Positions 1,327-5,815 of a stretch of 9,648 nt of DNA are shown here, piece after piece. The stretch lies in the IMG/VR virus record IMGVR_UViG_2609459830_000010; one strand, written 5' to 3'. Made by a program: the position numbers and the translations under genes. The notes under the pieces were generated by a model that had not been told where the DNA came from, did no database searches, and was given only the letters and a program-made list of their open reading frames with translations. Origin of the DNA: a virus. Taxonomy: Duplodnaviria > Heunggongvirae > Uroviricota > Caudoviricetes. Numbering within the stretch: position 1 is the stretch's first letter; each line of letters opens with the position of its first letter.

Positions 1327-1890
1327 GTGCTGACAACGCAAAAACGAAAATTTGCGCTGGCGCTCATGTCCGGGAAAAACAAAACAGCGTCAGCCATTGC
1401 CGCCGGTTATTCGGCGAAGACCGCCAGGGTTAAAGGCTCGCAGCTGGCAAAAGATCCGGAGGTGCTCGCGTTTATAGCCCGTAAACAGTGCGAAACGGTG
1501 GAGGTGGATGAGGTTCCTGTTTACCGGCAGAAAAAATCAGAGCAGGAGGATAAACCCCGTCGCCGTGAGGCGGCTGCAATACCACAGCCGGACGAAAACA
1601 ATCCGGAGATGCCACCGCCCGCGGTGATGTCTCATGGTATTGAATATATGGAGGATGGTCTTCCCGATCCGGTGAAAGCTATGGGGCAGATCCTGGTGGA
1701 AAACCTCAGCATTGATCCGAAACTGGCACTGGATGCGGCCTGGCGACTGGCGCAGTTCACACACCATAAAAAAGGCGATGCCGGTAAAAAATCGGCAAAA
1801 GGTGATGCCGCGAAAAAAGCGGCTAACCGTTTTGCGGTACCACCACCACCACGACTGGTGGTGAATAACGATAATGAGGGCAACGGATGA
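1327..1890 (+). CDS. terS: Terminase small subunit, P27 family
   Basis: GTG start at 1327 preceded by GGGAGGAGG; N-terminus MLTTQKRKFALALMSGKNKTASAIAAGYSAKTARVKGSQLAKDPEVLAFI matches the P27-family small-terminase N-terminal DNA-binding region as recalled. Charged, Lys-rich C-terminal tail. Stop overlaps the terL start (ATGA at 1887-1890). Confidence 0.85.
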   Translation: MLTTQKRKFALALMSGKNKTASAIAAGYSAKTARVKGSQLAKDPEVLAFIARKQCETVEVDEVPVYRQKKSEQEDKPRRREAAAIPQPDENNPEMPPPAVMSHGIEYMEDGLPDPVKAMGQILVENLSIDPKLALDAAWRLAQFTHHKKGDAGKKSAKGDAAKKAANRFAVPPPPRLVVNNDNEGNG

Positions 1891-3548
1891 TACCTGTATG
1901 GAGCACGGCCTGCCCGGACTGGGCAGAGCGCCTGAAAAAGGGGCTGTCGATTATTCCGGCTCCGATTTATCCGGACCAGGCTGCACATGCACTGGCGATT
2001 TTTAAACAACTGCGGATTGTGGATGCACCGGGTAGCCCGACATTCGGGGAGTCCTGTGCACCGTGGGTGTTTGACCTGGTGGCGGCCCTGTTTGGCTCCT
2101 ACGATGCGCAGACCGGTGTTCGCCATATCAAGGAAGTGTTTATCCTTATCCCCAAGAAAAACAGTAAGTCCACGCTGGCCGCGGGGATCATGATGACGGC
2201 GCTGTTACTGAACTGGCGGCAGGCGGCGGGCTACACCATTCTGGCCCCGACCGTGGAGGTGGCGGCTAACGCCTTCAACCCTGCCAGGGATATGGTACGA
2301 CGGGACGATGATCTGGATGACCTCTGTCAGGTGCAGACACATATCCGGACCATCACCCATCGGGTGACGGACACCACCCTGAAGGTGGTGGCAGCCGATC
2401 CGAATACGGTGTCCGGTATCAAGTCCGTGGGGACACTGATTGATGAACTGTGGCTGTTTGGCAAGCAGTACAAAGCGGAAGACATGCTACGTGAAGCCAT
2501 CGGCGGGCTTGCCTCCCGTCCGGAAGGGTTTGTGGTGTACACAACCACCCAGTCGAATGAACCGCCTGCCGGGGTGTTCAGACAGAAACTGCAGTACGCC
2601 CGGGATGTCCGTGACGGCAAAATTCATGATCCGCACTTTCTGCCGGTGATATTTGAACACCCTCCTGAAATGGTGGAAAGCGGGGCTCACCTGCAGATGG
2701 AAAACCTCGCCATGGTCAATCCGAATCTCGGTTATTCGGTGGATGAGGCCTTTCTGTACCGGGAGTACCGTAAAGCCCGGGAAGCCGGGGAAGAGACTTT
2801 CCGCGGTTTCATGTCAAAACACGCCAATGTGGAAATCGGTCTTGCCCTGCGTTCTGACCGCTGGGCGGGGGCGGATTTCTGGGAGCAGCAGGGCAGGCGC
2901 GTCAGCCTGGACGATATCCTGCAGCGCGCTGATGTGGTGACGGTGGGGATTGACGGCGGGGGCCTGGATGATCTGCTGGGAATGTACGTGACTGGCCGTG
3001 ACAGGGAAACCCGCGAATGGCTGGGCTGGGGCCATGCCTGGGTGCATGAAACCGCGGTGGTCAGACGGAAGAGTGAGGCATCCCGGTTTCAGGATTTTGT
3101 GGCCTGTGGAGACATGACGATTGTCCGTCGGGTCGGGGATGACACGGCGGAAGTGGCGGAGTATGTGCGTCGTATTCATGAGGCTGAGTTACTGGATCAT
3201 ATCGGTATTGACCCGTCAGGTGTGGGGCAGATTCTGGATTCACTGGCGGAAGCCGGGATCCCCGATGAGAGTGTGGTGGGGATAAGCCAGGGCTGGAAGC
3301 TGGGCGGGGCCATCAAAACCACCGAGCGCAAACTGGCTGAAGGGGTGCTGGTGCATGGTGATCAGCCCCTGATGGCCTGGTGTGTCGGCAATGCCCGGGT
3401 GGAGCCTAAAGGTAACGCCATTCTTATCACCAAACAGGCCAGTGGACGGGGAAAAATTGACCCGCTGATGGCGCTGTTCAATGCGGTCTCCCTGATGTCC
3501 CTTAACCCGGAACCGAAAAAGAAAGAATATGCGGTTTTTTTCATATAA
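1887..3548 (+). CDS. terL: Terminase large subunit (ATPase and nuclease)
   Basis: 553-aa ORF translationally coupled to terS. A P-loop-like segment (ILIPKKNSKSTLAAG) lies in the N-terminal half, and an acidic-residue-rich C-terminal half fits the nuclease domain. Size and position are typical of HK97-type TerL. Confidence 0.9.
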   Translation: MIPVWSTACPDWAERLKKGLSIIPAPIYPDQAAHALAIFKQLRIVDAPGSPTFGESCAPWVFDLVAALFGSYDAQTGVRHIKEVFILIPKKNSKSTLAAGIMMTALLLNWRQAAGYTILAPTVEVAANAFNPARDMVRRDDDLDDLCQVQTHIRTITHRVTDTTLKVVAADPNTVSGIKSVGTLIDELWLFGKQYKAEDMLREAIGGLASRPEGFVVYTTTQSNEPPAGVFRQKLQYARDVRDGKIHDPHFLPVIFEHPPEMVESGAHLQMENLAMVNPNLGYSVDEAFLYREYRKAREAGEETFRGFMSKHANVEIGLALRSDRWAGADFWEQQGRRVSLDDILQRADVVTVGIDGGGLDDLLGMYVTGRDRETREWLGWGHAWVHETAVVRRKSEASRFQDFVACGDMTIVRRVGDDTAEVAEYVRRIHEAELLDHIGIDPSGVGQILDSLAEAGIPDESVVGISQGWKLGGAIKTTERKLAEGVLVHGDQPLMAWCVGNARVEPKGNAILITKQASGRGKIDPLMALFNAVSLMSLNPEPKKKEYAVFFI

Positions 3549-3573
3549 CCCTGTTCACACTGTAACCATCACG

Positions 3574-3600
3574 AACCGCTGCGGCGGTTTTTTTATTTTC
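3574..3600 (+). terminator. Short hairpin plus T-tract, possible partial intrinsic terminator between terL and the capsid gene
   Basis: AACCGC (3574-3579), loop TGCG, GCGGTT (3584-3589), then TTTTTTATTTT. It lies between the terL stop (3546-3548) and the AGGAGG ribosome-binding site (3601-3606) of the next gene. The stem is only 6 bp, so it is weak. Confidence 0.35.
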
Positions 3601-3611
3601 AGGAGGCTGAT

Positions 3612-5549
3612 GTGACTCTTAAACGGGCCTGTTCCCTGCTGACGGTGAAATCCTTCAGTGAGGATGAACGGGTGATCACCGGGATTGCGTCAACGCCTTC
3701 TCCGGATCGGGATGGTGACATCCTGGAGCCGGAGGGCGCGGAGTTTGGCAGTGCGATCCCGTTTCTCTGGCAGCATGACCATTCCCGCCCGGTGGGGCAG
3801 TGTACGGTGCGCCGGGTCAGCGAAGGGCTGGAAATCACGGCAACACTGGTGAAGCCCGTACCGGATATGCCGTCGCAACTGGCTGCCCGGCTGGATGAGG
3901 TCTGGGCGGCCATTAAGACCGGGCTGGTCAGGGGGCTGTCCGTGGGCTTCCGTCCCCATGAATACACCTTTCTGGACGGAGGCGGACTGCATTTTCTGCG
4001 CTGGGAACTGATGGAGGTGTCTGCCGTCACCGTGCCCGCGAATGCGGAATGCACCATCCGGACCATTAAATCTTACGACCGCCCGTTTTCTGCCGCGTCC
4101 GGCAACCGGAAACCGGTGGTGAAAATCGCATCTTCTGCCGGCGCTGCGGCACAGTCAATAACCTCTTTTCATAAGGAAAAGTCAGCAATGAATACTGGTG
4201 AACAGATTAAAAGTTTTGAAAACAAGCGTGCGGCGCTGGCAGCCTCCCTTGAGGAGATCATGAACAAAGCCGCAGAGGAAGGCCGCACACTGGATGTGGA
4301 AGAGGAAGAGCACTACGACAACACCGCAGCGGAAATCCGTCAGGTGGATGCGCACCTGAAGCGTCTGCGTGAACTGGAAACCAGTAAGGCCGCCACGGCA
4401 CAGCCGGTGAAACAGGCCGGTAACGGGAATGTGGCCACGGTGGCTTCAGCGCCGGTGATCCGTGTTGAGCAGAAACTGGAGAAGGGGATTGGTTTCGCCC
4501 GCTTTGCCAAATCACTGGCCGCGGCTAAAGGTGTCCGCTCTGAAGCCCTGGAAGTGGCCCGTCGTCAGTATCCGGATGACAGCCGTCTGCATCATGTCCT
4601 GAAATCGGCGGTGGGGGCAGGGACCACCACGGACCCGCAGTGGGCAGGCAGCCTGTCTGAATATCAGGAATATGCGCAGGACTTTATTGATTACCTGCGT
4701 CCGCAGACCATTATCGGGCGATTTGGTCAGGGCGGGATCCCTGCACTTCGTCAGGTGCCGTTCAATATCCGCGTGCATGCCCAGGTGTCCGGCGGTGCTG
4801 CCGGCTGGGTGGGTGAGGGTAAGGCCAGACCCCTGACGAAGTTTGATTTTGAATCCATCACCTTCAGTCATGCGAAAGTGTCGGCCATTGCGGTACTGAC
4901 GGAAGAATTGATCCGTTTTTCCAGTCCGGCTGCTGATGCACTGGTCCGTAATGCGCTGGCGGAAGCGGTGGTGGCGCGTCTGGACACAGACTTTGTGGAC
5001 CCGAAAAAAGCCGCAGTGGCAGATGTCTCCCCGGCGTCCATCACCCATGATGTGAAGGGCACGGCATCAACCGGTAACCCGGATGCGGATGCCGAGGCCG
5101 CGTTTGGCCAGTTTGTGGCAGCAAACCTGCAGCCCACCGGTGCGGTCTGGCTGATGTCCAGCACCAATGCCCTGGCACTGTCCATGCGTAAAAATGCGCT
5201 GGGTCAGAAGGAATACCCGGACATGACCCTGCTGGGTGGCTCCTTCCAGGGGCTGCCGGTGATTGTCTCCCAGTACGTGGGTGACCAGCTGGTGCTGGTG
5301 AATGCCCCGGATATTTATCTGGCGGATGACGGCGGTGTGGCAGTGGATATGTCCCGTGAAGCGTCACTGGAAATGCAGTCTGAGCCGACCGGCGACAGCA
5401 CCACACCGTCCCCGGTGGAGCTGGTTTCCATGTTCCAGACCGGCAGCGTGGCCATCCGTGCGGAGCGCTGGATCAACTGGCGTCGTCGCCGTACCGCGGC
5501 GGTGGCGGTGATCACCGGTGTGAACTACGGCAGTGCGTCCGGCGGCTGA
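3612..5549 (+). CDS. Prohead protease (S78/HK97-type) fused to scaffold-like linker and HK97-fold major capsid protein
   Basis: GTG at 3612 with AGGAGG 5 nt upstream. N-terminal ~190 aa (ITGIASTPSPDRDGDIL...FLWQHDHSRPVGQ...GLSVGFRPHE...LMEVSAVTVPANAEC) matches the HK97 prohead protease pattern. Next comes a charged, helical, coiled-coil-like segment (EQIKSFENKRAALAASLEEIMNKAAEEGRTLDVEEEEHYDNTAAEIRQVDAHLKRLRELE) resembling a delta/scaffold domain, then a ~400-aa capsid-like region (LRPQTIIGRFGQGG...VPFN...). All are in one frame with no stop. Confidence 0.85.
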   Translation: MTLKRACSLLTVKSFSEDERVITGIASTPSPDRDGDILEPEGAEFGSAIPFLWQHDHSRPVGQCTVRRVSEGLEITATLVKPVPDMPSQLAARLDEVWAAIKTGLVRGLSVGFRPHEYTFLDGGGLHFLRWELMEVSAVTVPANAECTIRTIKSYDRPFSAASGNRKPVVKIASSAGAAAQSITSFHKEKSAMNTGEQIKSFENKRAALAASLEEIMNKAAEEGRTLDVEEEEHYDNTAAEIRQVDAHLKRLRELETSKAATAQPVKQAGNGNVATVASAPVIRVEQKLEKGIGFARFAKSLAAAKGVRSEALEVARRQYPDDSRLHHVLKSAVGAGTTTDPQWAGSLSEYQEYAQDFIDYLRPQTIIGRFGQGGIPALRQVPFNIRVHAQVSGGAAGWVGEGKARPLTKFDFESITFSHAKVSAIAVLTEELIRFSSPAADALVRNALAEAVVARLDTDFVDPKKAAVADVSPASITHDVKGTASTGNPDADAEAAFGQFVAANLQPTGAVWLMSSTNALALSMRKNALGQKEYPDMTLLGGSFQGLPVIVSQYVGDQLVLVNAPDIYLADDGGVAVDMSREASLEMQSEPTGDSTTPSPVELVSMFQTGSVAIRAERWINWRRRRTAAVAVITGVNYGSASGG

Positions 5550-5593
5550 GTCTGATGAGGAGGGCGGGAGGCGCGAGCTTCCCGCAGTAACTG

Positions 5594-5815
5594 ATGGCAA
5601 AAATCCGATATCTGCAGGGCACGCATGATGCCCGGGCCGGGGATATCCGTGATGTGGCACAGCCGTGTGCGGAGGTGCTGGTTCGCCTGGGGAAGGCGGA
5701 GTACATCACAGCGCGACGTCCGGCAGGTCAGAAAAAGAAACGTGATGCGGAGCATGGCGAATGTGGAACCTTTTGCGGCGAACCCGAAAAAACCAGAAAT
5801 CAGGACGTGACGTAA
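5594..5815 (+). CDS. Hypothetical small protein (73 aa), uncertain
   Basis: ORF between the capsid stop and the portal gene, overlapping the annotated portal start by 55 nt in another frame. No convincing Shine-Dalgarno directly upstream; a purine-rich GAGGAGGGCGGGAGG lies about 25 nt upstream. The N-terminal part looks protein-like (MAKIRYLQGTHDARAGDIRDVAQPCAEVLVRLGKAEYI). Confidence 0.25.
   Translation: MAKIRYLQGTHDARAGDIRDVAQPCAEVLVRLGKAEYITARRPAGQKKKRDAEHGECGTFCGEPEKTRNQDVT

Follow-up and report, generated by a model that had tools for sequence, protein, structure and literature searches.

Introduction

In phage HK97, gp4 and gp5 are a Peptidase_S78 protease and a capsid protein whose N-terminal helical delta domain serves as the scaffold, with no separate scaffolding gene; protease and capsid protein are the products of two genes, and the protease is targeted non-covalently. 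Genes in which protease and capsid protein are fused are already known and ordinary. Protease, scaffold and capsid form a single gene in Gifsy-2 (Effantin et al. 2010, as cited in PMC12315714) and in gp5 of Pseudomonas phage MD8 (PMC8508860), and protease-scaffold-capsid fusions occur in several small-actinophage clusters (PMC7302621). In lambda, the nested in-frame genes C and Nu3 (Shaw and Murialdo 1980, as cited in PMC8508860) give a long protease product and a shorter internal in-frame product from one open reading frame (ORF). Here, we analyze a stretch of 9,648 nucleotides (nt) of Caudoviricetes DNA (IMG/VR record IMGVR_UViG_2609459830_000010; the whole stretch is called the window below). 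These 9.6 kb make up a lambdoid prophage's head-gene block, and the gene in question, at positions 3612-5549, fuses a prohead protease to a major capsid protein (MCP).

Like HK97, the window encodes an S78 protease and a capsid protein with a delta domain and lacks a separate scaffolding gene, whereas its protease exists only as an N-terminal extension of the capsid protein. Gifsy-2 and MD8 differ from it in their S49/ClpP-like protease and scaffold region of ~200 residues, and have no sequence relationship to the window gene. The NCBIfam entry NF045541, "prohead protease/major capsid protein fusion protein", names the same architecture; the window protein scores 54.3 bits against it, far under the cut-off of 525, and matches in the protease and delta part only, and the window gene therefore represents a separate fusion lineage. 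On comparative sequence evidence, we propose that this gene probably makes both protease-tagged and plain capsid subunits from one frame through a conserved internal start, ATG 4188 (Met193). We found no description of internal initiation in protease-capsid fusions in the literature covered, with Effantin 2010 and Duda 2013 lying outside that coverage; leads on CBASS evasion and CapRel concerned other matters. As far as our searches reach, a conserved internal start with the capsid subunit as the nested product is undescribed.

Results

One frame encodes protease, delta domain and capsid protein

The features of the gene, all on the + strand, are the following, with window positions, Shine-Dalgarno (SD) sites, and AlphaFold2 (AF2) confidence as predicted local distance difference test (pLDDT) values.

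3601..3606, +: upstream SD AGGAGG, 5 nt before GTG 3612; duplex energy -10.3 kcal/mol
3612..5549, +: full-length ORF with GTG start, 645 codons plus stop (5547-5549); protease, linker, delta domain, HK97-fold capsid protein
3753..4067, +: Peptidase_S78 domain (PF04586; HK97-type prohead serine protease), residues 48-152
4077..4187, +: disordered variable linker, residues 156-192; its hypervariable end reaches the SD
4172..4177, +: internal SD TAAGGA (AAGGA at 4173-4177), codons cat-AAG-GAA; the full anti-SD tail pairs at -6.2 kcal/mol
4188..4190, +: candidate internal in-frame start ATG, codon 193 (Met193), 10 nt after AAGGA
4188..5549, +: putative nested ORF, 453 codons, encoding delta domain and capsid protein; predicted on the basis of conserved initiation signals
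4194..4394, +: two helices of the delta (scaffolding) domain, residues 195-222 and 229-261; AF2 pLDDT 72-76
4767..5516, +: Phage_capsid domain (PF05065; HK97 fold), residues 386-635; 53.8 bits against a cut-off of 24.2

The N-terminal part belongs to the S78 proteases by its PF04586 score (34.8 bits, cut-off 21), and it matches TIGR01543 at 46.4 bits, under that model's cut-off of 59. His55 (3774-3776) and Ser110 (3939-3941), both invariant in alignments A1 and A2, are the putative catalytic residues. On the capsid side, TIGR01554 (HK97 major capsid) spans residues 204-584 with 80.2 bits (cut-off 27.5), and PHROG 617 (major head protein) is matched by residues 1-639 at positions 7-626 of its 626 (E = 1e-260). 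The frame runs continuously from 3612 to 5549 in place of separate protease and capsid genes, and there is no scaffold gene between TerL and portal in the window. A PDB sequence search returned only one marginal capsid match (9d9w, E = 0.004) and none for the protease part.

The AF2 model was built from a 15-sequence alignment (mean pLDDT 42) and used only to place the boundary between linker and helices, its capsid part being too poor to confirm the HK97 fold. Residues 141-193 are without secondary structure (pLDDT 24-34) and confident helices begin at residue 195, which places ATG 4188 exactly at the start of the delta domain. The initial annotation had described protease, scaffold-like domain and capsid protein in one frame, with an in-frame ATG at the protease/scaffold boundary, 10 nt downstream of AAGGA. 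The Pfam and NCBIfam matches along the 645-codon ORF bear out the first of these statements, the coordinates of ATG 4188 and AAGGA are confirmed, and the boundary coincides with the linker-helix transition at residues 193/195; the scaffold-like domain is the HK97-type delta domain.

Apart from K167, V169 and V170, the linker is variable in the protein alignment, and it has the densest differences from the homologous gene of phage BP-4795. KPVVK (residues 167-171; 4110-4124) is its sole conserved motif, and PVVK is present too in the C-terminal tail of the separate protease of a Burkholderia phage. The motif could be a self-cleavage site, or what remains of a tail directing a free protease to the prohead.

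The internal start is conserved among fused relatives

The arrangement TAAGGA-N10-ATG at 4172-4190 is that of an internal start of the lambda C/Nu3 type, and the product of the nested ORF would match the last 453 residues of the fusion exactly. Around ATG 4188 (-30 to +30), the mRNA folds at -6.9 kcal/mol, the 0.8 percentile in a gene whose mean is -18.0, and the remaining in-frame ATGs (9 of 9) have folds at -15 kcal/mol or lower. SD pairing energy by itself, applied to the window alone, failed to discriminate 4188 from many other positions. Because the SD is unexceptional in the window alone, the case for ATG 4188 rests on conservation.

For comparison, 196 related loci were gathered, drawn from reference genomes and from viral contigs; they included 84 fused representatives that are less than 90% identical to one another and 34-77% identical to the window; codons and energies were tabulated for 82 of them. 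Of 192 full loci (Gamma-, Beta-, Alphaproteobacteria, viral metagenomes), a sample biased towards fused forms by the search patterns, 188 were fused and 4 were split. Met193 is invariant in 15 of 15 aligned proteins. Retention of the start by related elements had been proposed as a check in the initial annotation, and the outcome is positive: a start codon lies in frame within 0-3 codons of the Met193 column in 84/84 fused representatives (79 ATG, 2 GTG and 1 TTG among the 82 tabulated), and in each case an SD core precedes it by 3-12 nt, with its first G standing 7-16 nt from the start codon. The core is spread over all three codon registers (59, 21 and 3 representatives), and the residue pairs encoded across it (K-E, K-G, E-G, R-R, E-R, G-R and T-E) are chemically unrelated. 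This pattern supports the view that conservation of the internal site acts on nucleotides rather than on amino acids.

SD energies average -8.76 kcal/mol for the internal site, -7.27 for the 5' starts of the same genes and about -2.7 for the in-gene background, and the corresponding means for the local fold are -9.4, -12.4 and -16.7. Within fused genes, the internal site lies at the median 4th percentile of mRNA folding, and in 80 of the 84 genes no rival in-frame start equals it on both SD and fold.

Two other candidates in this region were rejected. The first, release of the protease by programmed frameshifting into the TAA at 4172-4174 (out of frame), lacks a slippery heptamer, and the TAA is part of TAAGGA and is not conserved. 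GTG 4296 (Val229) scores well as an alternative internal start in the window, but the residue is not conserved.

Split relatives start the capsid gene at the same methionine

In Burkholderia phage vB_FUB47a, protease and MCP are separate genes within the same synteny as in the window (TerS-TerL-protease-MCP-small ORF-portal). The MCP (444 aa) aligns end-to-end at 39% identity, with its Met1 at Met193, and the stop codon of the protease gene falls within a TAAGGA motif resembling that of the window. True splits also occur in Snodgrassella prophages and in two metagenomic contigs, where the capsid gene begins at the same Met. An unbiased search with the capsid part gave 143 nearest classifiable clusters at 50% identity, 104 fused and 39 MCP-only, and in 27 of the 39 MCP-only representatives the start is at most one residue away from the Met193 position. 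The Met1 of split relatives, the conserved start codon and SD, and the low mRNA structure together support the proposal of the initial annotation that ATG 4188 is a second start.

The window's own enterobacterial clade is fused throughout (19/19 representatives), and the best 120 matches are nearly all fused proteins of 644-650 aa, bar a few truncated or longer gene calls. Four-fold degenerate sites of the 19 enterobacterial representatives are 38% identical pairwise, against a chance expectation of 26%, so silent sites are nearly saturated in this clade. SD and ATG are retained in all 19, in two registers and at several spacings, and the evidence from this clade argues for selection on the internal start over mere inheritance. 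Between the window and BP-4795, the 45-nt bin at the internal site is the most divergent of the gene (8 differences; mean 1.8), and despite this divergence a run of 16 nt, TTTTCATAAGGAAAAG, and the ATG are unchanged.

Other arrangements were found among the relatives. In a Parasphingorhabdus metagenome-assembled genome (L034, 2330-4206), the order is reversed relative to the window: the capsid protein, which lacks a delta domain, stands ahead of a protease ORF that bears a helical C-terminal extension. In P0001 (1079 aa), P0123 (1094 aa) and P0126 (1091 aa), ~430 extra residues precede the protease-capsid unit, and P0001 additionally has a TerL_ATPase domain; these are either terminase-protease-capsid triple fusions or frameshifted assemblies.

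Proposed mechanism and alternative explanations

The window gene is likely to descend from an HK97-type module in which the stop separating the protease gene from the capsid gene was lost while the translation initiation region of the capsid gene was kept. Initiation at GTG 3612 (SD AGGAGG) would yield a 645-residue protease-linker-delta-capsid fusion of ~70 kDa, and initiation at ATG 4188 (SD TAAGGA, in an A-rich unstructured stretch) a 453-residue delta-capsid protein of ~49 kDa, i.e., an ordinary HK97-style subunit. Sharing assembly surfaces, both products would co-assemble into the prohead, where the fusion subunits would deliver the S78 protease, their N-terminal extension, to the inside of the shell, and the dose of encapsidated protease would be set by the initiation ratio between the two starts. 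The sequences show the open frame, its domains, the initiation signals, the conservation of these signals and their identity with the capsid-gene start of split relatives; initiation at 4188, the co-assembly of the products and their ratio are inferred. By analogy with HK97, the protease of the assembled prohead would then cut away the delta domains and the linker along with itself, so that mature capsid protein is left. Loss of the stop would have turned a diffusible, tail-targeted protease into a tethered one with the supply of capsid subunits unaltered. The upstream start is GTG in only 2 of the 82 tabulated representatives, and the clade of the window uses GTG upstream and ATG internally, a combination that fits the fusion being a minor product.

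Several points weigh against this proposal. In this G-rich gene a short anti-SD pairs equally well at 40% of in-frame positions, and the window SD is moderate (-6.2 kcal/mol at 10 nt spacing) and not exceptional within the gene, three other in-frame ATGs scoring better with the full 16S tail; an SD-like stretch of equal or greater strength accompanies four of the ten in-frame ATGs. In GC-rich relatives the SD mostly encodes E-G, so that some amino-acid constraint is possible there. Ribosomes elongating from the upstream start could occlude the internal site, and by a rough volume estimate a shell built from the fusion only is not physically impossible, so a second product is not strictly required. 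Fused and split forms are also interspersed: a neighbor-joining tree of the 143 representatives needs at least 34 state changes, so the intervening stop codon has come and gone many times. With such frequent switching, some fused lineages may be young, and their signals possibly inherited rather than selected.

This interspersion is also what would be seen if only the full-length fusion were made and the ATG and SD were leftovers of the ancestral capsid-gene start in young or reverting fusions, an explanation that the shared Met of split relatives and the unremarkable window SD favor as well. We nevertheless consider it unlikely: among the 84 fused representatives not a single start codon or SD has decayed, the SD has shifted register and spacing inside an all-fused clade whose silent sites are near saturation, and the region is also kept low in mRNA structure. 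Moreover, a fused gene could split viably only if its internal start already worked. It is very unlikely, in our view, that the purine stretch and the Met are instead constrained at the level of protein or elongation, as a self-cleavage or recognition site of the protease or as a pause for protease folding. The frequency of E-G or K-G immediately before the Met and the presence of the conserved KPVVK within the same linker would fit such a constraint, but the nucleotide core is retained over chemically unrelated residues, neither pausing nor cleavage needs ATG, GTG or TTG at a fixed distance or an unstructured mRNA window, and in split relatives the Met is simply the initiator. The two separate genes of HK97 are the only point in favor of the fusion being an artefact, i.e., a sequencing or assembly error or a decayed prophage joining two genes. 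This explanation has a negligible probability and is refuted by the comparative data, since 1252 of the 5426 complete E. coli genomes contain the same frame, in up to 7 copies each, since it is also present in Stx1 phages, in BP-4795 and in the 188 fused loci, and since the protease His and Ser are invariant.

If dual initiation from one frame is correct, it would show how fused systems keep from loading a protease onto each of several hundred capsid subunits, and it would explain the protease-to-capsid ratio without a targeting signal. It would be an N-terminal, initiation-based counterpart of the retroviral Gag/Gag-Pol strategy, in which the protease likewise enters the shell on a minority of capsid subunits at a translational ratio. 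The analogy is functional only and implies no homology: in Gag-Pol the protease is a C-terminal extension made by frameshift or readthrough, whereas in the window it would be N-terminal and governed by two initiation sites. If the internal start is used, thousands of "major capsid protein" entries would each stand for two products, with the protease function unannotated. Pathogenic E. coli harbor the module in Stx1-converting and many other lambdoid prophages, which makes the system accessible to genetics.

Lambda gene C and Gifsy-2-type genes under the same scan

As a partial positive control, lambda gene C was scored for SD and fold, and a single in-frame ATG stands out at codon 309 (record position 5342, NC_001416), with the SD TCAGGAGGG (-10.8 kcal/mol) and the least-folded window of the gene. 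We take this ATG to be the start of Nu3 (~13 kDa, 131 residues). The RefSeq nu3 start at 5132 (201 aa) is without the signature, its SD being poorly placed and its context well folded, and the annotation may use the wrong start (5132 rather than 5342). The analogy to C/Nu3 drawn in the initial annotation is apt as mechanism, as the same signature marks one ATG in gene C. The components differ: the lambda protease is S49/ClpP-like, the internal start gives a free scaffold and capsid protein E has a gene of its own, whereas the window protease is of the S78 type and the nested ORF includes the capsid, its product being the capsid subunit itself. Another nested in-frame pair of head genes is I/Z of phage Mu.

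The Gifsy-2 gene (NC_010393, 22471-24561) is annotated as Clp protease; the N-terminus of the window gene is not of the ClpP type. The Gifsy-2 gene contains a candidate start, GAGGAG-N8-ATG at codon 221 (23131-23133), directly after the ClpP-like protease domain. This internal site is kept in 18 representatives of the Gifsy-2 type (58-74% identity), where it falls in the least-folded 0-6% of each gene. Because the SD here also encodes a conserved E-E pair, nucleotide and protein constraint are inseparable in this group. Judged by sequence, the Gifsy-2-type gene is an independent replicate in an unrelated fusion. Protease-capsid fusions of tailed phages may well use dual initiation generally, a reading we favor slightly, with the choice of start setting the number of protease copies per shell in at least two unrelated lineages (S78-HK97 and S49/ClpP Gifsy-2). 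Such generality would explain how the stop could be lost and regained at least 34 times in the family at little cost, and the combination of SD, start codon and local mRNA-folding minimum would offer a practical signature for nested starts.

The head-gene block and minor features

The genes and other elements surrounding the fusion gene in the window are the following.

671-1036: HNH endonuclease
1327-1890: small terminase
1887-3548: large terminase (terL)
3573-3599, +: terminator-like hairpin GAACCGCTGCGGCGGTTT, stem 3573-3590 (7 pairs, 4 GC), then the T-run TTTTATTTT
3612-5549, +: protease/capsid fusion gene
5594-5815: small ORF, 73 aa, no Pfam match
5761-7125: portal
7122-8183: ORF with repeats after the portal gene, no Pfam match

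Connector, head-completion and gp10-like genes lie downstream of the ORF at 7122-8183. The head block is 98% identical to that of Stx1a-converting phages and 96-97% identical to that of BP-4795, in which the same ORF is annotated as a single "major capsid protein" coding sequence. The order terminase, protease-capsid, portal (1887-7125) is unusual: the capsid gene precedes the portal gene, whereas in HK97 and lambda the portal is placed first. The window order is kept in distant relatives (vB_FUB47a and the loci L279 and L282).

Between capsid and portal, the small ORF at 5594-5815 runs across the called portal start (5761). It has counterparts in ORF57 of BP-4795, at 3944-4120 in vB_FUB47a and at 3951-4181 in the split metagenomic locus L279, and is probably a real conserved gene, to which we assign no role. 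The ORF at 7122-8183 contains a 162-nt (54-aa) tandem repeat at 7353-7717 (2.3 copies, 87% match). Its BP-4795 counterpart, ORF59 (annotated "portal protein"), has 461 aa against 353 aa in the window, and because this difference of 108 aa equals two repeat units, variation in repeat copy number is suggested. A second tandem repeat, of 27 nt (2 copies, 85% match), lies at 1770-1823 in the 3' part of the small-terminase gene and codes for a duplicated K/A-rich peptide.

The hairpin at 3573-3599 occupies part of the 63 nt that separate the terL stop (3548) from the start of the capsid gene, inside what is expected to be a single late operon, and is given as context only; the count of terminator-like sites in the region is not above that in shuffled sequences. 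At the upstream start itself, the sequence ATGTGA (3610-3615) places an out-of-frame ATG that shares one base with the GTG start and stops immediately, and this two-codon ATG-TGA frame uses the same AGGAGG as the true start.

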